Program-made: the position numbers and the translations under genes
Assembly (NCBI GenBank): GCA_963738405.1
Contig: CAVTWJ010000018.1
Span: 64,001 to 128,000 of the forward strand
Reading direction: 5' to 3'
Length of the DNA: 64,000 nt
Source: a candidate division FCPU426 bacterium
GTDB taxonomy: Bacteria > Oederibacteriota > Muellerivitia > Muellerivitales > Muellerivitaceae
Shown: piece after piece, positions 10,176 through 46,818 of the stretch
Position numbering within the stretch: the first letter of the stretch is position 1
Layout: each line of letters starts with the position of its first letter
The notes under the pieces: model-generated
Told to the model about the DNA's origin: nothing
Seen by the model: only the letters and a program-made list of their open reading frames with translations
The model's database searches: none

Positions 10176-10321
10176 ATTTTCACCACCAAGACACCAAGGC
10201 ACCAAGAAAATCAAAAGGCAAGTTTGGGAAAATCTTTTAAAAGTGGGTACTTAAAAACGGCTTTTTGGTTTTGCTGTACCCAAAAAATCGATTCTTACTT
10301 GGTCTTCCTTGGTGGTAAATC
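10176..10321 (-). repeat. Miniature inverted-repeat element, copy 1 (CCACCAAG/CTTGGTGG arms)
   Basis: 10176-10210 is the exact reverse complement of 13687-13721; degenerate opposite arm at about 10298-10321. Confidence 0.8.
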
Positions 10322-13634: not shown

Positions 13635-13721
13635 CCACCACCAAGACACCAAGTACGGCAACCATTCTTATGTTTTAAACAATATTTTTTCTTGGTGCCT
13701 TGGTGTCTTGGTGGTGAAAAT
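13635..13721 (+). repeat. Miniature inverted-repeat element, copy 2
   Basis: CACCACCAAGACACCAAG ... CTTGGTGCCTTGGTGTCTTGGTGGTG arms forming a long hairpin. Confidence 0.85.
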
Positions 13722-15666: not shown

Positions 15667-15778
15667 ACAAGCTCCCCTGGGTTGAAACTGCCCGCGACCT
15701 TTAGGGCTTTGGGAAAAGCGATTATATATAATAGGGTCGAAAGAAAGCACCCTCCCCCCCTTTCCATGGAGCCAACCT

Positions 15779-18700
15779 TTGAGTTTTTCAATTTATTTAG
15801 GCCCCTATCGGCCTTTTCTCGAACGGTCACTCTTTGATGAGGTGAAGAATCTCCGGCAAAAAGACCCCCTGACGCCGCTGGTGGTGCTGGTTCCCAACCG
15901 CTTGCTGGTGCGCCATCTGCGGGAGGCTTTGGCGCAAGACCAGGGGAAAATTTTCAACATCCGGTTCCTGACCTTCCACCAATATCTGCTGGAAGCCACC
16001 GAGGGGAAATGGATTCAAGAGGGGTTTCGGATGCTTCCCGAATCCCTGGTGTCCTGGGTTTTGCGGGAAACGGCCAGGGGACTCAAGCCCGCATTAAGGT
16101 CCTTCAAGTCGGTGGAAGAAACCCCCGGTTTCCACAGGACCCTCCAGGCCACCCTTTCCGAACTTCGGCAAGCCGGAATCGACCCGGCGGACCTGAAAGA
16201 ATCCTCCCGCAAGATCGGGAAGGACAAGACCCGCAAGAGGCTTTCGGAAAAATGGGATGAATTTTCCAAAATTCTTTCAGCCTATGAAGCCTGGAAGCGC
16301 CAGGAGAAATGGAAAGACCGGGAAGACCTTTATGTCGACGCCCTGACCCTGCCGCCGCCCGAAACCCCGATTTGGGCTTACGGCTTTTATGACGCACCGA
16401 CGCTACAAAAAAAAGTGTTACTTCACTTAACAGCAAAACCTGAGATTGCCACGTCGCCAAACGCCCCGATTGGGGCGGCTCCTCGCAATGACAATAAAAT
16501 GGAAAATTATTGGTTTATTCCCTACGAAGACCATCCGGCTTTTGAATACGCCAAGCCTTTCGTGGAATGGGCGAAAGAATATGGGAACGTTAAAGGCGTC
16601 GGGAAATATGAAAGTGAAAAGAAAACGCCGTTAGGTAAGTTACAGAACAACATATTTAAAACCGAACAACCTCAAGGCACCCCTCACCCTGACCCTCTCC
16701 CTCAAGGGGAGAGGGCGGCTGGTGCTCTAAAGTTTGAGGACTCCGATGTGAAGATTCTTCTGTGTCCCGGTGAACCCCGTGAAATGCGGGAAGTGGTAAG
16801 GTCCATCACCGAGGAAGCCCAGAGGCAGGGAAGTTCCTTTTCCCAATGCGGGTTGATATTGCGGCAGTTCGATGCCTACCGCCGGGAAATCGTTCCGGCC
16901 TTCGACGGCCAGAAAATCCCCATCGCCAAAAAGCCCCCGGTCTTTTTGTTAGAAACCCCGGAGGCCAAGGCCTTTTTGCTTCTGCTCGAATGTTTCCAGA
17001 ACGAATTTCCACGTGAGACCCTGATGAATTTCCTATCCAGCCCCAACCTGGATCCTTCGGGTTTTGGCCTCAAGAGCGCCGACTGGAATCCTCATTTGTG
17101 GGACCAGGCTTCCAAGGAAGCGGGCATCGTGGAAGGCGAAGGCGCCTGGCTTGACCGCTTGCAGGACCATCTACATGAAGGTTCCGACCCCGAAGGGCGG
17201 GATGAGGAAAGCTTCTCGAAAGAAGAAAGGGAAACGCTGAAGGCCTTCCGAAACCAGGTGCTTCATACGCTCTTCCAAGGGCGGCGGTTGTTCGAGAAAG
17301 AAAAGAACTGGGTGGGTAAGACTCGGGTGCTTTTTGACCTGGTCGAAAAGATCTTCCGGCCTTCCGAGGCGAAGGAACAATTGAAGACCCTTCGACGCGG
17401 CGTGGAGATTCTTTCCAAAGATTCTTTCACGGTCGAGAAAGACGAGTTGGCTTCGCTTCTCACTGGACTCATGGATGAGGTATCAATCCCCTGGGAGATT
17501 TCCGGCTTCGGCGGGGTCGAGGTGTCGGACCTCATGCAGGCCCGGGGCGTTCCCTTTGATGTGGTGGTTTTGCCCGGCTTGGTGGAGCAGGGCTTTCCCC
17601 GTGTGCCCCGGCAAGACCCTCTTTTGTTGGATGAGGAACGGCGCTTGCTCAACGGCCTACTTGAAGGCAAGGCCCATATCCCCGAGAAATCGGAGGGCCG
17701 ATTGGAAGAAAAGCTTCTCTTTCTTCTCATGGCCCGAAGCGCCAAGAAATGCCTTATCCTCACCGCCTCACATTTGCATCCCGGCACGGGCGCACCAAGG
17801 GTTCCATCCAGCTACCTGCACGAGACCCTTCGGGCCGTAACCGGCCAACGCCAGGCTGAATGGGGCGCGGATTCCCCCTATATCAAGAAGGTCGCGGTGT
17901 CCGATTGGATCAGGGACGAGGGCGCCACCCGGGTCGATGACCTGGAAGAGGTGCTTACCCGTTTTCAGGAAGCCCGCCAGGGCAACCCCCTGCCCGCCCA
18001 GGCCTATTTGGAAGGGAAGCCCTTCTATCAGGAAGCACGGGAAATGCTTCAGGAACGGCAGGGCAAGCGTCGTTTCACCCCCTATGACGGGGTCTTTGAG
18101 GATGCCAAGACCATCGAAAGGCTCAGCCAGGAACATTCCCTGCAACATAAACCCCTTTCGGCCTCGCGTCTGGAAACCTACGCCACCTGCCCACTGCGCT
18201 ATTTCTACCGCTATGTGCTGGGGTTGAAGATCCACCCCGAGCCTGAGCGGGTCTTTCAGTTGGACCCGGCGGAAAAGGGAAACCTGATGCACCAGGTTTT
18301 GGAGGAAGTTCTTTCCCGGGGCGTGAAGGAAGGCTGGCTGAAAGAACGCGACCAGGAGAAGGCCCGCAAGGTTCTTGGCGAAGAGACCCAGCGCATCTTC
18401 AAAAAGTTTGAAAAGGAAGGCGTGCCCGGATCGCTGGCCTTGTGGCAGTGGAGCCAGTTAATTTTGACCCAGGACCTGGAAAGGGTTTTGCGGGAGGTTT
18501 TGGAAGACCCAAATTGGACTCCTGTCGATTTTGAAAAGGCCTTTGGCCGTCCGGGCCAAGCCGAAGTGGCCTTTACCTCCCCCGCCGGAATCTTTCGGCT
18601 GGAAGGCTTCATGGACCGGGTGGATGTAAAAGCGGACGGGAAACACTTAAGGGTCGTGGATTACAAATCGGGTAGCGCTATCGGGTTCAAGAAGAACAGC

Positions 18701-19048
18701 GTGAAGGAAGGCACCAAGATCCAAATGCCTCTTTATCTCTGGGCCTGCCGCACGCTTTATCCCCATCTGACCCCCGAACAAGCGGTCTATGAGTTCATCA
18801 CCGCCAAGGGCGGCTACGGTTCTACGCCCTTCGATGCCACCGATTGGAACAAGGTCGAGGAACCCCTGAAGGCTCTTTTGACAACGGCCTCGCAAGCAGT
18901 GGAGCGGGGCCTTTTCCCCGCGGCGGCCAAGGCTTGCGAGCGATGTGACTTTAGATTGCTCTGCGGGCCGGGCGCTGAAAAGCGGGGAGAACGGAAGAGG
19001 GAAGATATGAAGGTTGGGGATTATTACAAGCTAGAAGAATTATTGTGA
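15779..19048 (+). CDS. addB: AddB/RexB-like inactive helicase with C-terminal PD-(D/E)XK nuclease
   Basis: SASRLETYATCP, GFMDRVD, VVDYKSG, QMPLY, CxxC..C (four-Cys Fe-S staple); upstream of addA. Confidence 0.85.
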   Translation: MSFSIYLGPYRPFLERSLFDEVKNLRQKDPLTPLVVLVPNRLLVRHLREALAQDQGKIFNIRFLTFHQYLLEATEGKWIQEGFRMLPESLVSWVLRETARGLKPALRSFKSVEETPGFHRTLQATLSELRQAGIDPADLKESSRKIGKDKTRKRLSEKWDEFSKILSAYEAWKRQEKWKDREDLYVDALTLPPPETPIWAYGFYDAPTLQKKVLLHLTAKPEIATSPNAPIGAAPRNDNKMENYWFIPYEDHPAFEYAKPFVEWAKEYGNVKGVGKYESEKKTPLGKLQNNIFKTEQPQGTPHPDPLPQGERAAGALKFEDSDVKILLCPGEPREMREVVRSITEEAQRQGSSFSQCGLILRQFDAYRREIVPAFDGQKIPIAKKPPVFLLETPEAKAFLLLLECFQNEFPRETLMNFLSSPNLDPSGFGLKSADWNPHLWDQASKEAGIVEGEGAWLDRLQDHLHEGSDPEGRDEESFSKEERETLKAFRNQVLHTLFQGRRLFEKEKNWVGKTRVLFDLVEKIFRPSEAKEQLKTLRRGVEILSKDSFTVEKDELASLLTGLMDEVSIPWEISGFGGVEVSDLMQARGVPFDVVVLPGLVEQGFPRVPRQDPLLLDEERRLLNGLLEGKAHIPEKSEGRLEEKLLFLLMARSAKKCLILTASHLHPGTGAPRVPSSYLHETLRAVTGQRQAEWGADSPYIKKVAVSDWIRDEGATRVDDLEEVLTRFQEARQGNPLPAQAYLEGKPFYQEAREMLQERQGKRRFTPYDGVFEDAKTIERLSQEHSLQHKPLSASRLETYATCPLRYFYRYVLGLKIHPEPERVFQLDPAEKGNLMHQVLEEVLSRGVKEGWLKERDQEKARKVLGEETQRIFKKFEKEGVPGSLALWQWSQLILTQDLERVLREVLEDPNWTPVDFEKAFGRPGQAEVAFTSPAGIFRLEGFMDRVDVKADGKHLRVVDYKSGSAIGFKKNSVKEGTKIQMPLYLWACRTLYPHLTPEQAVYEFITAKGGYGSTPFDATDWNKVEEPLKALLTTASQAVERGLFPAAAKACERCDFRLLCGPGAEKRGERKREDMKVGDYYKLEELL
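16442..16492 (+). repeat. Palindromic repeat inserted in-frame in addB (GAGATTGCCACG...CTCGCAATGAC type)
   Basis: 51 nt encoding EIATSPNAPIGAAPRND, inner hairpin CGCCCC-GATT-GGGGCG. Confidence 0.7.
16681..16715 (+). repeat. BoxC-like palindromic repeat in-frame in addB
   Basis: CCCTCACCCTGACCCTCTCCCTCAAGGGGAGAGGG; stem CCCTCTCCC/GGGAGAGGG; encodes PHPDPLPQGER. Confidence 0.75.
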
Positions 19049-19064
19049 AAGGAGTTATTGAGAT

Positions 19065-19595
19065 ATGAAATATTTTACAGGTGATATGTGGATGGGAGTT
19101 AATTCTTCAAATAAGAAGGTAATTAATAAAGCCGATTTAATGTGGAAAAGAAATATAAAAGCTTATTCAAAACAATTAGATGGATTAAGGAAACATTTAG
19201 GGAAAAGAAACTATGATTTTTTTAAAAATATTTCTTTGCACGATAGTTGTTTTATTTCATTCAAGTTCAACCAACGTGAAAGTGAAAGTGTTCAAAAGAT
19301 ATTAAGATCGCCATTTAATTTTCAAAAAAGAATAATTGAAATAATAACTATAGAAGCCGAAAAGAATCAGATAGTTAAATTGATTTATAAAAAAGTATTT
19401 TCTGTCTTTATGGATTTGCCTGAAAAAGCACCTTTATTCGATGACTCTGATTATTTGGGGGGATGGGGTTATGGAGAATTAACATTAGATAAAAAAGGCC
19501 ATCTTCAGCATGAAATACTTTTTAGCACTGGTGCGACGATTAAAATCGCCTTTGAAAATTTTGACTTTAAATATTTGTCAAAACCAAAGGTTTGA
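19065..19595 (+). CDS. AT-rich hypothetical protein (DUF4085-like) between addB and addA
   Basis: MKYFT.., SLHD, WGYGEL..HEILF pattern; RBS AAGGAG; strongly AT-rich. Confidence 0.6.
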   Translation: MKYFTGDMWMGVNSSNKKVINKADLMWKRNIKAYSKQLDGLRKHLGKRNYDFFKNISLHDSCFISFKFNQRESESVQKILRSPFNFQKRIIEIITIEAEKNQIVKLIYKKVFSVFMDLPEKAPLFDDSDYLGGWGYGELTLDKKGHLQHEILFSTGATIKIAFENFDFKYLSKPKV

Positions 19596-19647
19596 ACATC
19601 CATAACGTGGAGCTAGACCGAATGACTTGTAAATACTGGAAAACGAA

Positions 19648-22600
19648 ATGATCTCTGACCAATCAATCCGAACCCTAGTCACACATGACCACGAGACCCT
19701 CTTTGCAGTGGATGCGGGAGCGGGCACGGGTAAGACCACACAATTGGTCGCCCGGCTTATCGCCCTATTACTCGAAAAGAAGGTTCCTTTAAGCCGCATC
19801 GCGGCCATTACCTTCACTGAAAAAGCTGCCGCGGAGTTGGCCCAACGTCTGCGCTTTAAACTTGAGGAAGCTCTCCCAAAATATCCCGAACAGAAAGCCC
19901 TGATCCTGAAAGCCTTAGAGGACATGGAGCGGGCCCCCATTTCGACCATCCATTCCTTTTGCGCTGGGTTATTGAAGGACTACCCGGTTGAGGCCGGAGT
20001 AGACCCTCAATTTGCCCTGATGGATGAAGTTCAATCAGGCGCTTTCGAGACCCAGACCTGGGAACATTGGCTGAAAAAGAACCTTTCCCAACCCGTCGAG
20101 CCCCTCTTCCAGTTCCTCCGCCTGGGCGGGACCTTCGAGCATGTGGATGAATTGAAGCAGTTCCTCAAGCGAAACCGGACCCTTCTGAAAACCCCTGAAA
20201 AACAAGCTCTTCCTTCGGTTGAGCCATTCCGCAAGGAGTGGAAAGAATTCCTCATCTGGAGCAAACAAGCCGCGAAGGACTGTAAAGACCACAAAGACAA
20301 GTTGTATGAAGCCCTCGAAACCTTCTGGGCCGAGAGCCAGGTTCAGGAATCCTCGAAGCCGGAGGAAGCGGATTTTAACCTCGCTTTGTTGGATATCCCC
20401 AAGGTGAAAAGAACGGGCAATCAAAAGGCCTGGGATAAGGCGGTCTTGGACGAGATTCGCCTGCGTTTTGAGGGGCTCGCGGAAGACCACACTTCCGCCT
20501 TTGCGCCTTTCCGTGAAGCGGTGTTGTTGAACCTCATCCATTGGATTGGGGGTTACCTGACAGAATGGGAAACCCAGAAGGCTAAGAGCGGTTTCCTCGA
20601 TTTCGACGATCTACTTTTAAAAACACGGGACCTCTTGCGCGACCACCTGGACAGTCGGGAAGAGATCAAGAAACGGTTCGACACCCTCTTCGTGGACGAG
20701 TTTCAGGACACCGACCCTTTGCAGGTGGAGATCGTGTTTTTCCTCTGTGAGTTGCAGGGTCGCCATGAAAAGGATTGGAAAAAAGCTTCTCTTGAACCTG
20801 GAAAATTGTTTTTGGTAGGTGACCCCAAGCAAAGCATCTACCGGTTCCGGCGGGCGGATGTAGCCATCTATGAAGCCACCAAAGAACGCATTTTAGCCAA
20901 CGGGGGGAAGGTCGAGGTTCTGACCGAGAACTTCCGCACTGTGGGCGGGTTGGTGGAGTGGGTCAACGAGCGGTTCCTTCCTCAATTCGAAGGTTCGGGC
21001 ATCACCTATCGAGCCCTGAACGCCAGCCGGGAGAAAGGTAAGACAGAAGGCACGCTTCCCATTCTTTGGGGGCTGAAGGTCCCTGTGCCGGAGGGTTCGG
21101 AAGACACCAAGGCCTTTTACCGTCAGCAGGAAGCCGAGTGGGTGGCGGCCTATTTGAAAGACCAGATCCTTCAGGGTGGGTGGACCGTCGCGGACCCCAA
21201 AACGCATGAGCGGCGGGCCGTTCGGGCGGGGGATATCGCCCTGTTATTCCGGGACCTTTCCAATGACAACGAAGAATACTGGGAAGAGGCCCTGCGCAAG
21301 CGGGACCTGCCCTACCAGATCATCGGGGGCAAGAGGTTCTACAACCGGCCCGAGATTGTGGCCCTCTCCACTCTCCTCACTTGTCTTTCCTCGCCTGCGG
21401 ATGAGGCGGCCTGCGTGGCGGTTTTACGGGGACCCCTCTTTGGGTTCTCGGACGAAGAATTGTTCCTTCATCGTGCTGACAAGGGTTCTTTCCTGTTTCA
21501 AGAAGATGCGAAAGAAAAGATGGGAAAAGCCTTTAAGTGTTTACGGGATTGGTTCGACGCCACCCGCACGCTCGGCGTATCGGAAACCTTGAGCTACCTC
21601 TACGAACACACCAACCTCTTAGCCATCACCGCCGGGCAACCCCACGGGGAACAGCGGGTCGCCAACCTCATGAAGGTCTTAGACCAAGCGCGGAACCTTG
21701 AAACCACCCAGCATTTCACCTACCGGGCTTTCACCCAGTGGCTGACCACCCAGCAAGAAGAAGGAACCTTAGAGGGCGAGGCGCCGGGGCCCGATTCCTC
21801 CGAGGACCGCACCGGTGTCTTTTATGACACCGGTACCGACAAAACCAGCGCCTCGGCTGGTGGCCTCGGCGCAGATCGCATCACCCTCATGACCATTCAC
21901 AAGGCCAAGGGGTTGGAATTCCCCATCGTGTTCGTTTCCGCCTGGTCATCGGACCCCAAGGATTCGGGGAGCCTGGTGGACCGCAAGGCCATGGTGGGCG
22001 CTTTCAAAGTTGGCCGAGCCGACTTAGGCTTAAAGACCACAAATTACGATTCGGTCAAAGAAGATGAAGAGCTTCAACAACTAGCCGAAAACACCCGATT
22101 GCTCTATGTGGCGGCCACCCGTGCCCGGGACTGTCTTTTACTGCCCCATTTCCAAATGCCTCTCGAGTGCAAATTCCAAAACGAAAACCTTTTTGCGGGG
22201 CCCCTCTTGAAGGCCTTGGAAGAAAAGGACTCGCCAGTGCGGTCTGCGCCGAGGCCACCAGCCGAGGCGGAAGATTTGACGATACTGGCGTCAATAAAGA
22301 CGCCAGTGCGTTGGGCGGAACCGGATAGTATCAAAGAGTCGCTGGGCGACCCGGCCGTTTGGTCGGTGAAACTGAACGTGGACCCGAAAGACCCGGCGCT
22401 TAAGGCGGAAAAAGAAAAACTCGTTTCCGAAAATCAAAAACGCACAGGTCTGATCGAAAGGATGATGGGCAAGCGAACTTTTCAATCGGTTACTTCGGTC
22501 CTCGCTGTGGATGAAGATAAGAAAGGAACCGAAGAACGCATCTGGGAAGGGCCTGAGCCTTCTTCCCCCTGGGGTGGAAAGGAATTGGGTTCCTTCACCC

Positions 22601-23028
22601 ATCTACTTTTGGAAAAGGCCTGGGATTGGAAACCAGCCCAAATCCCTCAGGCCGCGGAATATTACGGTGAAAAGATGGGTCTTTCACCTGAACAAAGGGC
22701 GGAGGCGGCCCAGTGGGTCGAACAGACCCTTTTGAACCCTCTCATCCAAAGGGCTAAAAAATCCGAAAGGGCCTTCCGGGAATTGCCCCTTACGGGAAAA
22801 TATGAAGATGATTTTTTGAACGCGGTGCTCGACCTGGTCTTTTTGGAAGAAGGGAAATGGGTCATTGTGGATTACAAAACCGACCGGGACCCGAACAAGT
22901 TAGCCGAAAAATACGGGAAGCAATTAAAACATTACGCCAAGCTTTTGGAGCAGACCACCCAAATACCCGTCAAAGAAGCCCATCTCCTCTTTATCCGGGA
23001 GAATCGGGCCCAAGCTGTCCCCCTTTAA
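19648..23028 (+). CDS. addA: AddA/RexA-like UvrD-family helicase-nuclease
   Basis: AGAGTGKT, DEFQD, VGDPKQSIYRFR, ENFRT, TIHKAKGLEF, LLYVAATRA, C-terminal IVDYKTD..QLKHY. Confidence 0.92.
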   Translation: MISDQSIRTLVTHDHETLFAVDAGAGTGKTTQLVARLIALLLEKKVPLSRIAAITFTEKAAAELAQRLRFKLEEALPKYPEQKALILKALEDMERAPISTIHSFCAGLLKDYPVEAGVDPQFALMDEVQSGAFETQTWEHWLKKNLSQPVEPLFQFLRLGGTFEHVDELKQFLKRNRTLLKTPEKQALPSVEPFRKEWKEFLIWSKQAAKDCKDHKDKLYEALETFWAESQVQESSKPEEADFNLALLDIPKVKRTGNQKAWDKAVLDEIRLRFEGLAEDHTSAFAPFREAVLLNLIHWIGGYLTEWETQKAKSGFLDFDDLLLKTRDLLRDHLDSREEIKKRFDTLFVDEFQDTDPLQVEIVFFLCELQGRHEKDWKKASLEPGKLFLVGDPKQSIYRFRRADVAIYEATKERILANGGKVEVLTENFRTVGGLVEWVNERFLPQFEGSGITYRALNASREKGKTEGTLPILWGLKVPVPEGSEDTKAFYRQQEAEWVAAYLKDQILQGGWTVADPKTHERRAVRAGDIALLFRDLSNDNEEYWEEALRKRDLPYQIIGGKRFYNRPEIVALSTLLTCLSSPADEAACVAVLRGPLFGFSDEELFLHRADKGSFLFQEDAKEKMGKAFKCLRDWFDATRTLGVSETLSYLYEHTNLLAITAGQPHGEQRVANLMKVLDQARNLETTQHFTYRAFTQWLTTQQEEGTLEGEAPGPDSSEDRTGVFYDTGTDKTSASAGGLGADRITLMTIHKAKGLEFPIVFVSAWSSDPKDSGSLVDRKAMVGAFKVGRADLGLKTTNYDSVKEDEELQQLAENTRLLYVAATRARDCLLLPHFQMPLECKFQNENLFAGPLLKALEEKDSPVRSAPRPPAEAEDLTILASIKTPVRWAEPDSIKESLGDPAVWSVKLNVDPKDPALKAEKEKLVSENQKRTGLIERMMGKRTFQSVTSVLAVDEDKKGTEERIWEGPEPSSPWGGKELGSFTHLLLEKAWDWKPAQIPQAAEYYGEKMGLSPEQRAEAAQWVEQTLLNPLIQRAKKSERAFRELPLTGKYEDDFLNAVLDLVFLEEGKWVIVDYKTDRDPNKLAEKYGKQLKHYAKLLEQTTQIPVKEAHLLFIRENRAQAVPL
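21805..21880 (-). mobile_element. 69-bp in-frame insertion element, copy A (span includes flanking direct repeats)
   Basis: GACCGCA (21805) / GATCGCA (21874) 69 nt apart; hairpin ACCGGTGTC-TTTTAT-GACACCGGT; reverse complement aligns ungapped to copy B. Confidence 0.8.
22232..22310 (+). mobile_element. 69-bp in-frame insertion element, copy B
   Basis: CGCCAGTGCG direct repeat at 22232 and 22301 (69 nt apart); hairpin ACTGGCGTC-AATAAA-GACGCCAGT. Confidence 0.8.
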
Positions 23029-25127
23029 CTTCCTAACCCCAACTGTCCCATTTCATATTTCAACCAGGCGTTTCCCGGGGAAAGCTTCTGGGCCTTTTGG
23101 AAAATCTTTTTAGCTTCCGCTTTTTCGCCTTCTACGGCCAAGAGCTTGCCGTATTTTTCACATAGAGTCGCATCCTGGTAGCTTTTCCCAAAAGATTGAT
23201 GGAATGTTTCCGAGAAATTATTCCAATTCGCCCAGTTATCCCCCGGGAAAAAAGTATTTTCCCAGGAAAAATTAAAAGCCAGTTTTTCGAAATAACAAGA
23301 TTGAAGAAAGGGGTCGGAAGGGATGGAGGGATAGGCCTGTAACATTTTTTCAAGGACCGCTTGGTGGGGTTTGCCGGTGGGGATATCCACCGATTCCAAA
23401 TTGATCTCCTGCTGAAACGTGTAATAACTTTTCCATCGCTCCAGGAAGGTCCTATTTACCGGAGTCACCGGTAAAATCCCGAGCGCGTGCCGGCTCAAGA
23501 CCCCGGGTTGAGGGGTCCCGCCGTTGATCCAACGGCAGTCAGGGAGAGCCTGGGATAAAAAGGGTAGATAGTGGGTTTCCGTAAAGACCGCCGCCCATTT
23601 CACGTCTTGTCCCAGACGCTGGTTCCAGGCCGCGTTGAAAGGGTAGGAACAATAGGCCAGCGAGTAATTTTGGGGGCTGGGAACCATATCCGAAAAGATC
23701 CAACCGGGTCCCTCCGCCCTCGCCAGGTTGTCCAGACTCCTATATCCGTCCCGGTACTCGCTGAAATCGACCTGGGCGGGATTCGGAAGAAATAACCGAT
23801 TGAGGTCCCAAACCGCCGAAGAACCCAGCACCACGACCAGCAGGAGGGGACGTAATCGGCCTGGCAGGGATAAGACCAAGGTTTCTATTCCCAAGGCCAA
23901 AAAGATCAGCAGAAGGGGTAACGCTAGGAGCATCCGGTGGGCTTCCAGGTCCCTGGATAAAAGGCCGGGCAGGAGGAAGATGGGAAAGGCAACCAAAAGA
24001 ATTTTGGATAGTAATTTAAAGCGCCCTCGGACCATTTCAACGAATCCCAAAAGGAAAGCCGATCCCAATAAGGCGTTTAATAGCCCCCCTTGGGGCGCCA
24101 ATTCCATCCCCGAGGTCCCGCCCCAAAAAATCGCCTGAAGATAACTGAAAGCGACCCGCGCCTGACCCCATAGGGTAAAAGAAGGATCATTCCAAGCCGC
24201 TACTTCATGCAAATGCCCGCCATAGCCCGTCCCAACCGCCGTGAGAAGAAAAGGAACCATTCCCCCCAAAAGAAAAATGAAAAAAAGTCCTCCGGCGGCC
24301 CACTCCGTTTTTTTCCAAAACCATCCGCCTGCCACCCCCAACCCAAATAGAGTTAATACGGGCCAAGCCATAAAGGTATAGGGCCCCAAGCCCAAGGCCA
24401 GCCCCAAGGCGCAGGCCCAAATTTTTCGGGAGGCGGGATTGGGGGACAAAGTCAAACGGCCGAACAGGTAAAGTACCCCCCATTCCCAAAAGGGAAGCAA
24501 AACCCCCGGTTCATCGCACCGGGAAAGAAGAAGGTCCCATAGGTTGAAAGCCGTTATAACCGCGAGGATTCCCGCGAGGGGCCTTGAAAAATAAAGGCGC
24601 GCGGCGGCATAGCTTAAAACCACGGTCAAAAACGAGACCAGGGCCGAGGGAATTTGGATTCCCAGAAGATTCGAACCCGTCAACCTTGCCGCGAAATAGA
24701 AAAGGTAACTGAGCGTGCTGGGAACCTGGCTTAGGATCACAAAAGGTTTCCATTGCCAATGGTCCATCCACTGGATGACCGACAGGGCCAAGAGGGAAGA
24801 GTCCCCTCCCGGCCAGCGGCTTAAGGAACCGATACCCCAAAATCTCACGAGGGCCGCGAACGTCAGGAGGAAAAACCAAACCCAGACTGGGAAGGAAGCG
24901 TTTTCGCCGGAACCCTTGGATCGAAGAAATGAACGATCCCTGGCCGGGGAAGAGGGGGATAAATAAATCAAAAGCAAGGGCAAGGCTAATCCTAAAAGAA
25001 GAATCCGGATTTTGGAGGGTGGGGAAAGCGGAGTCTGGGATAAAAGCGAAAGGCTGGCGGCCAGTATGATAAAACAAAGCCAAGCGGGAAATGGAATCGA
25101 CCGGGCTGTTATTTTGTTTTTTTTCAC
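23025..25127 (-). CDS. Polytopic GT-C-like (ArnT/PMT-type) membrane protein with C-terminal TPR
   Basis: Many hydrophobic segments, R..sl...WP.gD loop, C-terminal TPR-like helices; paralog of 43138-45174. Confidence 0.65.
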   Translation of the reverse strand: MKKNKITARSIPFPAWLCFIILAASLSLLSQTPLSPPSKIRILLLGLALPLLLIYLSPSSPARDRSFLRSKGSGENASFPVWVWFFLLTFAALVRFWGIGSLSRWPGGDSSLLALSVIQWMDHWQWKPFVILSQVPSTLSYLFYFAARLTGSNLLGIQIPSALVSFLTVVLSYAAARLYFSRPLAGILAVITAFNLWDLLLSRCDEPGVLLPFWEWGVLYLFGRLTLSPNPASRKIWACALGLALGLGPYTFMAWPVLTLFGLGVAGGWFWKKTEWAAGGLFFIFLLGGMVPFLLTAVGTGYGGHLHEVAAWNDPSFTLWGQARVAFSYLQAIFWGGTSGMELAPQGGLLNALLGSAFLLGFVEMVRGRFKLLSKILLVAFPIFLLPGLLSRDLEAHRMLLALPLLLIFLALGIETLVLSLPGRLRPLLLVVVLGSSAVWDLNRLFLPNPAQVDFSEYRDGYRSLDNLARAEGPGWIFSDMVPSPQNYSLAYCSYPFNAAWNQRLGQDVKWAAVFTETHYLPFLSQALPDCRWINGGTPQPGVLSRHALGILPVTPVNRTFLERWKSYYTFQQEINLESVDIPTGKPHQAVLEKMLQAYPSIPSDPFLQSCYFEKLAFNFSWENTFFPGDNWANWNNFSETFHQSFGKSYQDATLCEKYGKLLAVEGEKAEAKKIFQKAQKLSPGNAWLKYEMGQLGLGS

Positions 25128-42833: not shown

Positions 42834-42986
42834 TCATCCCATGCCCGCAAATTTTTGGTCTGGGCACTTGCGCTGGGAATATTCTTTGTCCCAGGAATTA
42901 ATAAAGATTATAGGGCGGTCACGGGGGTCTCTCGTTTTCAAAACCTGCATCAGCGTGTCGAAGGTTTCCGGGTCCCCCACGAGCTA
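42834..42986 (-). pseudogene. Diverged orphan copy of the last ~50 codons of prfC
   Basis: Translates *LVGDPETFDTLMQVLKTRDPRDRPIIFINSWDKEYSQRKCPDQKFAGMG* versus prfC WLVGDPETFDPPVQVLKTRDRHDRPVILFKTSWEKEYTQRKCPDHKLVDMG*. Confidence 0.9.
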
Positions 42987-45216: not shown

Positions 45217-46818
45217 TCAACCCATGTCCACTAATTTGTGATCGGGGCATTTGCGCTGGGTGTATTCCTTTTCCCAGGAAGTCTTAAAAAGAATCACGGG
45301 ACGGTCGTGTCGGTCGCGCGTTTTCAAAACCTGCACTGGCGGGTCGAAAGTCTCTGGATCTCCCACGAGCCAGGCGCTGGATTGGTAAGGAAGAAGTTCT
45401 AAATGGCTTTCAGCGCTGTACTCGTTTTTAAGGCGATACTGCAATACGTCAAACTGCAAGCGCCCCACGGCGGCAACGTAAATATCTAGATCATTCCAAC
45501 TTTTTAACAATTGGACCGTTCCTTCTTCGGTCATCTGCTGCAAACCCTTATCAAAAGATTTGCGCTTGGAAACGTCCTTCGGCCTCACTTGGGCGAAGAT
45601 TTCGGGTTGGAACTGAGGCAGGGGCTTGAAGTCGAACCCGCCTTCCAGCGAAAGGGTGTCGCCGATGGAAAAAACGCCGGGATTGATCACGCCCACGATG
45701 TCGCCCGGATAGGCCACGTCTAGGATGTTACGGTCTGAGGCCAGCATGGAGTGGGGGCGGGAAAGGCGCAGTTCCTTGTTTAAACGGTGGTGCTTGACCA
45801 CCAGGTCCCTTTCGAACCGGCCTGAGCAGACCCGCATAAAAGCGGTGCTGTCACGGTGTTTGGGGTTCATGTTGGCTTGAAGCTTAAAGACATAAGCTGA
45901 AAAGGGTGTCTCCACCGGGTCCACCAGGATCTCCTCACCCGAGGGGGTGTCGGCAATGCGTGCCCCGGGGGGAGGGGCCATTTCCACAAAGGCGTCGAAA
46001 AAAGGTTCCACCCCGAAATTGGTCAGGGCGGAGGCGAAGAAAACCGGAGTGACTTCGCCGTTTAAGAATTTACCCGGTTCAAAGGGGTTCCCCGCCACTT
46101 CGAGCAATTCCAGGTCATGCCTCAGCTTTTCCAGAAGTTCAGGATTTAGGCGGGATTCGGTCGCCGGGTCTTTCAGGGAAAGGCGTTCCACCGAGGCCTT
46201 GGCCGCTCCCCCTACTGAAACCTTTGCGAACATCAACAGTTCCTGGGTGCGCCGGTCCATGACGCCCGAAAAATCCCTGCCGCTTCCCACGGGCCAATTG
46301 ATGGCGGAAGAGCCGATCTTTAAGACTTGTTCCACTTCCTGCATCAGGTCCAGAGGATCGCGCCCTGGCAGATCCATTTTGTTGATAAAGGTCATGACAG
46401 GGATGCCCCGCAAGTGGCAAACATCGAAAAGCTTGCGGGTCTGGGTTTCCACGCCCTTGGCGGCATCGATCACCATGATGGCGCAATCGGCGGCGGTGAG
46501 GGTACGGTAAGTATCTTCCGAGAAATCTTGATGGCCAGGGGTATCCAACACGTTGATGATGGCGTTCTTGTAGGGAAACTGCATGGCCGAGGCGGTGATA
46601 GAAATACCGCGCTCCTGCTCCATGCCCATCCAGTCGGACACGGCGACTTTTCCGCCCTTGCGGCCCCGCACCATGCCCGCAGTTTGGATCATGCCCGAAT
46701 ACAAGAGCAGCTTTTCGGTCAATGTGGTTTTGCCGGCGTCCGGGTGGCTGATAATGGCGAAAGTCCGCCGTTTGGCGATGGCGTTTTTGATTTCAACGGT
46801 TAAGGCGGGGTCGGTCAT
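45217..46818 (-). CDS. prfC: Peptide chain release factor 3
   Basis: RRTFAIISHPDAGKTTLTEKLLL, DTPGHQDFSEDTYR, NKMD, QANMNPKHRD. Confidence 0.97.
   Translation of the reverse strand: MTDPALTVEIKNAIAKRRTFAIISHPDAGKTTLTEKLLLYSGMIQTAGMVRGRKGGKVAVSDWMGMEQERGISITASAMQFPYKNAIINVLDTPGHQDFSEDTYRTLTAADCAIMVIDAAKGVETQTRKLFDVCHLRGIPVMTFINKMDLPGRDPLDLMQEVEQVLKIGSSAINWPVGSGRDFSGVMDRRTQELLMFAKVSVGGAAKASVERLSLKDPATESRLNPELLEKLRHDLELLEVAGNPFEPGKFLNGEVTPVFFASALTNFGVEPFFDAFVEMAPPPGARIADTPSGEEILVDPVETPFSAYVFKLQANMNPKHRDSTAFMRVCSGRFERDLVVKHHRLNKELRLSRPHSMLASDRNILDVAYPGDIVGVINPGVFSIGDTLSLEGGFDFKPLPQFQPEIFAQVRPKDVSKRKSFDKGLQQMTEEGTVQLLKSWNDLDIYVAAVGRLQFDVLQYRLKNEYSAESHLELLPYQSSAWLVGDPETFDPPVQVLKTRDRHDRPVILFKTSWEKEYTQRKCPDHKLVDMG

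Follow-up and report, generated by a model that had tools for sequence, protein, structure and literature searches.

Insertion of such small repeats in frame into bacterial genes is already known, including that of REPs in recB/uvrD-type genes. The accessible text of Di Nocera et al. describes in-frame REP inserts of 20–30 aa, genes with two such inserts, and a preference for recBCD and UvrD helicase genes (PMC3733652). The movement of very small repeats (RPEs and intragenic REPs among them) and their recurrent arrival in recB/addA-type genes are still poorly explained, since one seldom has filled/empty pairs or partners to work with. The element described here supplies mapped ends, hundreds of covarying copies, patchy sites in addA and a testable tie to one protein family. 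It was found in a window of 64,000 nt, the whole stretch of DNA that was analysed, from a candidate division FCPU426 bacterium (contig CAVTWJ010000018.1).

Two in-frame inserts in addA

The window contains addA, downstream of addB, and within it two inserts of 69 nt in opposite orientations. The features are as follows (window coordinates).

19648..23028, + strand: host gene addA, an ORF of 1126 aa with UvrD-type helicase and PD-(D/E)XK nuclease
21805..21811, second copy 21874-21880, + strand: short repeat of site A, GACCGCA/GATCGCA, codons D-R
21810..21878, - strand: double-hairpin element copy A, 69 nt; ends set by the R|C rule, movable inside the 7-nt repeat; covariance-model match E 5e-15
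21848..21872, - strand: hairpin 1 of copy A; 5 bp, GA/GA 2x2 mismatch, 3 bp, 5-nt loop; preceded by CT
21835..21847, - strand: linker of copy A, 13 nt, with the conserved G and TTG
21811..21834, - strand: hairpin 2 of copy A; perfect 9-bp stem, 6-nt loop
22232..22241, second copy 22301-22310, + strand: 10-nt repeat of site B, CGCCAGTGCG, codons P-V-R
22240..22308, + strand: double-hairpin element copy B, 69 nt; ends movable inside the 10-nt repeat; covariance-model match E 6e-14
22246..22270, + strand: hairpin 1 of copy B; GA/GA mismatch present
22271..22283, + strand: linker of copy B, 13 nt, with TTG
22284..22307, + strand: hairpin 2 of copy B; its 3' arm matches host codons just upstream of insert B

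The first-pass annotation of this locus had proposed a 69-nt structured unit inserted twice, and its measurements were reproduced on rechecking. The bounding repeats are spaced 69 nt apart at both sites (21805/21874 and 22232/22301), the reverse complement of 21808-21880 is identical to 22238-22310 at 60 of 73 positions without gaps, a perfect 27-mer included, and the 9-bp stems were located where hairpin 2 is listed above. The 27-mer is itself a 25-nt hairpin (hairpin 1), which had been overlooked. The A/B pair is the longest inverted repeat in the window, with a BLAST E of 1e-14 against the whole genome. The two compensated stem positions of copy B, which had been read as a sign that the hairpin is under selection, are indeed present; alone they are no proof of selection, because of the match between the 3' arm and the upstream host codons, and they may have originated in the target, with hairpin correction following.

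Insert A directly precedes the motif-V segment of AddA, and insert B falls in the linker that follows motif VI. When AddA orthologues were aligned (28 usable proteins from 30 loci, two of which gave none), both inserts corresponded to precise 23-aa gaps, as had been anticipated; site A was filled in 2/28 proteins and site B in 3/28. The alignment with B. subtilis AddA (3u44) is continuous across insert A, with zero residues between, just before the helicase motif TIHxxKGLEF. Among five additional genomes, one (G074) was filled at both sites. The inserts are not an assembly error, since the same inserts occur in independent genomes and a related public contig spans copy B ungapped.

We then considered the history of the inserts. 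Copies A and B are mutual nearest relatives, with at most 10 differences over 53 nt, while all 362 copies outside addA differ by at least 15; this kinship points to one local inverted hop, by which one copy may have given rise to the other. Within the 15 closest genomes, 3 carry an insert at site A and 4 at site B, and these lie on either side of the deepest split. The inserts of G000 and G004 agree at 61 of 69 nt and at 16 of 17 synonymous codons, against 303 of 569 for the whole gene. The flanks of filled alleles track the host tree, and no co-transferred flanking tract was shared between them; an upstream Cys common to three B alleles was considered as a sign of a shared tract and rejected, as G074 has no Cys and the empty G075 has one. 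Either the insertion is old and under nucleotide-level constraint, with at least five precise losses, or the addA subfamily has re-invaded the same sites. Precise loss would be easy because of the flanking short repeats. The same element occupies two additional addA sites, one in G015 and the other in G016, G071 and G075, and three addA sites are shared patchily across genera.

Unrelated repeats also lie in frame within addA and addB. In addB, 16439-16492 is an in-frame insert of another repeat family (31 genome copies; CGTC/SRM-like by eye) and 16676-16717 one of a third family (5 copies found), whose 42-aa double form is present in addA of G001, G002, G003 and G075 and not in that of the genome under study. 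The simplest reading is that tolerant loops, and not a special role, lie behind the insertions in addA and QueC, and the insert is probably neutral for AddA. The addA insertion itself is ordinary; the element family and its ParB-like link, described below, are not. Elsewhere in the window we observed an AT-rich 176-aa ORF between addB and addA (19065-19595) with no Pfam match, a perfect 35-nt inverted pair (10176-10210 / 13687-13721) of an octamer-repeat family with ~125 copies genome-wide, and an 87-nt direct repeat (42898-42984 / 45284-45370), 75% alike and 2386 nt apart.

Structure, ends and distribution of the element

A covariance model was built from 34 copies, with A and B seeding the genome search; a hand-made descriptor, which gave 94 matches versus 24 in the shuffled genome, served only for seed choice. 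At E<=0.001 the model revealed 61 copies at 42 loci in the 3.18-Mb genome under study. It matched in 30/30 other genomes of the same bacterial family and in 0/68 other genomes of the phylum. The analysis upholds the earlier proposal of a non-autonomous, structured, mobile unit with precise in-frame insertions. Exact-pattern scans gave 2 matches in genome contigs, 45 in metagenome contigs and 0 in viral contigs, with patterns so strict that absence is not implied. A search of 15700-23100 against Rfam returned three chance-level matches only and no family for the element.

The element consists of a C-N(2-3)-CT lead, hairpin 1, a 13-nt linker (G..TTG), hairpin 2 and one purine. Hairpin 1 has a constant length of 25 nt (5 bp, a 2x2 mismatch of tandem G-A, 3 bp and a 5-nt loop with an invariant C), and hairpin 2 has ~9 bp, is 20-33 nt long and varies in sequence and loop. 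Over 134 copies, whose register was set using TTG while the loop C played no part, the 25+13 spacing was fixed, the loop C was present in 134/134, the GA/GA mismatch in 101, the linker G in 127 and TTG in 132-134. The two bases of CT ahead of hairpin 1 were found in 78/82 and 77/82 copies. The linker motif may resemble IS91 targets and rolling-circle nick sites, and the mapped element ends fall outside it.

The stems, by contrast with these near-invariant bases, vary with strong compensation. The stem covariation score was 0.713 versus 0.219 when shuffled and at most 0.13 in slid controls, 18 of the 19 stem pairs showed changes on both sides, and 67 distinct copies, mostly from relatives, had 97% paired cells in an alignment fitted to the model. 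Structure is thus conserved over sequence, as had been supposed from the two addA copies, and the combination is as expected of a folded single-stranded DNA substrate. On the element strand of hairpin 1, G-T pairs outnumbered A-C pairs by 50 to 15 (142 copies, no pairing filter), which indicates that one strand is the folded one.

Filled/empty pairs and arrays gave unit lengths of 65, 66, 67, 68, 69, 70 and 72 nt, and only copies within ORFs were confined to 66, 69 or 75 nt. The supposition that the length is fixed as a multiple of 3 therefore did not survive; multiples of 3 reflect survivorship in genes, not design. The TGCG junction core likewise proved to be a trait of the addA subfamily and not of the family, since most other filled/empty pairs share just 1-3 nt at the junction. 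Judged by eye, an R|C join was seen on both sides at five of nine non-array sites (addA A, addA B, L353, L284 and L232). The other four comprise G|G at L252, the ambiguous L121, L097 with a 13-nt repeat, and L124/L130, a blunt insertion into the loop of an older copy with zero shared bases. Junction repeats averaged 4.2 nt versus 3.4 in shuffles, owing to ~13 of 82 single copies with 6-16 nt. We found no long or fixed-length target duplication at the mapped ends, no fixed target sequence in flank base counts, and no terminal inverted repeats in the alignment of copies.

Copies form head-to-tail arrays of 2-7, nest within one another and insert into other repeats; one lies in the octamer-repeat family (G000:C22:43313). 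In four genomes, neighbours 0.3-30 kb apart were on the same strand in 62/79 cases and those farther apart in 7/15. With regard to a bias by replication strand, the C-rich strand carried 32 of 48 loci, though the strand skew is weak and the contigs are unordered. Copies within ORFs use both orientations, as first described for addA, and at least four of the six reading frames; 14 of 23 copies within genes are antisense. Different, independent copies occupy one loop in 4 of the 25 QueC genes shown, and G006 has filled and empty paralogues that are 99.6% alike.

ParB-like genes and the means of movement

The genome under study has 17 paralogous genes with ParB_N, HTH, TM and outer domains, which make up 1.6% of it. 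Of the 61 element copies, 36 (22 of 42 loci) are inside these genes or no more than 500 nt away, and 12 of the genes have a copy; control repeat families were not enriched there (0/19, 4/78 and 2/40 loci). The copies occupy loops and linkers of the genes, provide stop codons and form arrays behind them; 17 copies stand in sense-strand arrays right behind their stop codons, and 17 of 20 copies in arrays downstream of genes are sense to the gene. Over 31 genomes, element and ParB-like gene copy numbers were correlated (rho 0.85, with 50 or more copies counted as 50; medians 41 versus 6.5), a relation confounded by kinship and genome size. The paralogues are mosaic, and several similarity breakpoints coincide with element ends.

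With regard to the gene family itself, its 17 loci in G000 (for example L006:3848-5905 and L010:689-2257) have two interchangeable outer domains, members without ParB_N have phased 21-bp arrays upstream, and 19 of 31 family genomes have such genes, up to ~18 each. In G001, identical 1329-nt IS110 copies (L123:2761-4089, L134:1613-2941 and L125:11827-13155) include two directly upstream of ParB-like units.

The enrichment, the arrays, the correlation and the breakpoints would fit a role for the ParB-like membrane protein as partner: held next to its own gene while being inserted into the membrane, it would bind the element and recruit or promote insertion in cis, and the elements would be recombination points that shuffle paralogue modules. 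We regard this as doubtful. The modelled fold is Noc/ParB-like and has no nuclease, recombinase or strand-transfer catalytic domain. Copies (1-14 per genome) persist in the 12 of 31 genomes that lack the gene; among these genomes G006, in which a Y1 transposase was not found either, has the near-identical filled and empty paralogues. At metagenome loci the gene was within 2.5 kb in only 6 of 45. The downstream arrays track the C-terminal module and not the HTH type, which speaks against the arrays being cognate binding sites. The same enrichment is predicted if copies hitch-hike on a gene family that is expanding, in combination with self-targeting, and we hold this to be as likely as partnership. 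A more ambitious version, which we find quite doubtful, joins element and protein family into a two-part mobile system. A structure-read 65-72 nt ssDNA site would be inserted in cis by the ParB/Noc-fold protein or by an enzyme that it recruits, building arrays, shuffling protein modules and delimiting cassettes, while the addA subfamily would enter these two addA sites again in distant genera, bringing no flanking DNA and having a junction sequence of its own that matches the target.

The search for a mobilising enzyme beside the copies (Y1, GIY-YIG, tyrosine recombinase, integron integrase and neighbour ORFs) yielded no candidate. An HUH/RAYT or other nuclease gene flanked by copies, which the first-pass annotation had proposed to look for, was not found; the gene family flanked by copies is that of the ParB-like membrane protein. 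The three Y1 genes of the genome under study have unrelated flanks and no element copy, only 3 of 28 Y1 loci across the family have one copy within 1.5 kb, and Y1 was undetected in 9 of 31 genomes, including G021 (99% complete, 67 element copies). Of three GIY-YIG loci, the two small ones, which were scanned, had no copy; the third is UvrC-sized. Tyrosine recombinases were rejected as partner, the nearest of nine matches being ~12 kb from a copy. The Y2 transposase search gave no match, in a test whose control also matched nowhere. Among 511 distinct neighbour ORFs that were clustered, of which 42 + 82 were Pfam-scanned, there was no recurrent nuclease or recombinase; the sample is biased towards ParB-like loci, as these were fetched on purpose. 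No joints were seen in four low-share DNA runs of one study. Separately, Y1/RAYT-like genes of ~320 aa with a C-terminal extension, bracketed by 38-39 nt inverted repeats, were noted at L051:722-1927 and L053:895-1925.

On balance we favour, with moderate confidence, the view that the element is non-autonomous and mobile, 65-72 nt long and confined to one bacterial family, and that it is read as folded single-stranded DNA and moved in trans by an HUH-type or structure-reading enzyme. The element shares its conserved mismatch and loop base, asymmetry between strands and clean ends with the substrates of TnpA-REP, IS608/ISDra2 and IntI, for which the accessible part of the source describes these features as determinants (PMC8266576), and for this reason a folded ssDNA element is preferred. 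We infer that a trans-acting enzyme, most probably either a single-strand transposase of HUH type or a recombinase that reads structure, would recognise the folded strand, cutting and joining at fixed ends (mostly R|C) without long target duplication. Hops would be local and readily beside or into older copies, giving arrays, nests and same-strand clusters, and frame-keeping inserts in tolerant loops would survive within genes. In addA, one copy would have produced the other in this way, the sites then becoming patchy through precise loss and/or re-invasion. Against this reading are the search beside copies that gave no candidate enzyme, the four of nine junctions that do not fit R|C and the ~13 of 82 copies with 6-16 nt repeats, which are also expected from microhomology or replication slippage. 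Template-switch correction can perfect stems and may, in place of selection, partly explain those of the element.

Long junction repeats are part of the case for spread with no dedicated enzyme, in which slipped replication, gene conversion and microhomology-based recombination by the host would multiply copies and template switching would perfect their stems. The 7 and 10 nt repeated at the addA junctions and the 13 nt in G006, the tandem arrays and the match of the copy B stem to its target would agree with it. Spread of this kind leaves the invariant unpaired bases, the persistent GA/GA, the register fixed over 134 copies and the blunt nested insertions without shared bases unexplained, and such an origin seems most improbable. 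Movement through RNA, in which transcripts of the sense arrays behind genes would be cut to unit length and reverse-transcribed, and the fold would be one of RNA, is very unlikely. The element strand does fold better as RNA (-40.9 versus -34.4 kcal/mol), the downstream arrays are mostly sense to their genes, and an RNA route has been suggested for Allomyces double-hairpin elements (PMC2800124); the G-T excess would suit it too, but ssDNA predicts the same asymmetry. Copies within genes are mostly antisense, no reverse transcriptase was present among the scanned neighbour ORFs, and Rfam gave no match.

The element could also be an attC-like cassette boundary, between same-strand copies of which a recombinase would move genes (toxin-antitoxin modules, RHS tips, ParB-like genes), with the lone addA copies as empty cassettes. 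In attC sites structure is conserved over sequence, which we counted in favour of this idea. Over 10-30 kb, one intergenic gap after another does hold copies on the same strand; of 21 ORFs with a copy on either side, 19 have the two on one strand, and PIN, zeta, Fic and HigA-type modules are among the genes enclosed. However, local hopping explains the strand coherence equally well, few duplicated segments end at element ends except where one copy is simply absent, the attC core motifs (R-box) were not seen in the element alignment, and an integron integrase (TIGR02249) was over cut-off in 0/31 genomes. We judge a cassette boundary unlikely. If a new enzyme reads the fold with little sequence constraint, the element would be a compact programmable insertion tag; if there is no such enzyme, it is a well-documented new repeat family of known type.

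Genes next to copies include repeated 2.55-kb units with orphan RHS tip genes (L005:4105-6738, G000:C16), each with an element copy across a small-ORF stop codon; G003 (L087) has the same arrangement. In G016, a CopG-PIN toxin-antitoxin pair (L086:408-1571) lies between two three-copy arrays on one strand.

Comparison with known systems

A search of the openly accessible literature found no published description of the double-hairpin element, its clustering with ParB-like genes or its enzyme. The likeness to REPs and RPEs that the first reading had drawn holds in effect, namely in-frame inserts in conserved genes. With RPEs, as far as the accessible text describes them, the element shares in-frame inserts in conserved proteins (here AddA and QueC), restriction to a lineage and a mobiliser identified for neither (PMC2229807). 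RPEs are there described as single long stem-loops of 105-146 nt with terminal inverted repeats (PMC2229807), whereas the element, at 65-72 nt, has two separate hairpins, lacks terminal inverted repeats and forms arrays. It differs from DDE-mobilised MITEs in having neither terminal inverted repeats nor a fixed-length target duplication. The double-hairpin elements of Allomyces mitochondria are also mobile, with two hairpins and no flanking duplication, in the text available; they are organellar and eukaryotic, an analogue in architecture (PMC2800124). Integron attC/CALIN sites lie on one strand between accessory genes; of the close neighbours here 62/79 are on the same strand, but many copies lie within genes.

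The ends of IS200/IS605 elements and their non-autonomous derivatives, in the parts of the sources that we draw on, resemble the element in two subterminal hairpins, strand specificity, and the precise excision and lack of target duplication that would be expected (PMC8266576; PMC5027513). The element differs in having no fixed tetra- or pentanucleotide target, hairpins 5-6 and 1 nt from its ends, and no linked TnpA. Ssn/NTS (SRM) repeats, in the accessible account, are likewise hairpin repeats recognised as ssDNA that cluster around genes (PMC11893778), but the element has no CGTC-type motif and no GIY-YIG gene flanked by copies (2 small loci). Intragenic GTAG/CGTC REPs and REPINs/BIMEs are, by the available text, small hairpin repeats that, like the element, insert in frame, at times twice in one gene, favour repair genes (UvrD/REP helicase and recBCD among them) and overlap stop codons (PMC3733652; PMC8266576). 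Their strand-specific fold with a conserved mismatch and loop base, as that source gives it, is present in the element (PMC8266576). In place of a GTAG or CGTC tag, the 134 copies have CT before hairpin 1 and G-variable-variable-G before hairpin 2, with GTAG in few copies only. The element joins two unlike hairpins in a fixed head-to-tail unit, not in inverted dimers, its stems are free to vary, no RAYT lies beside copies, and it is tied instead to ParB-like membrane genes.
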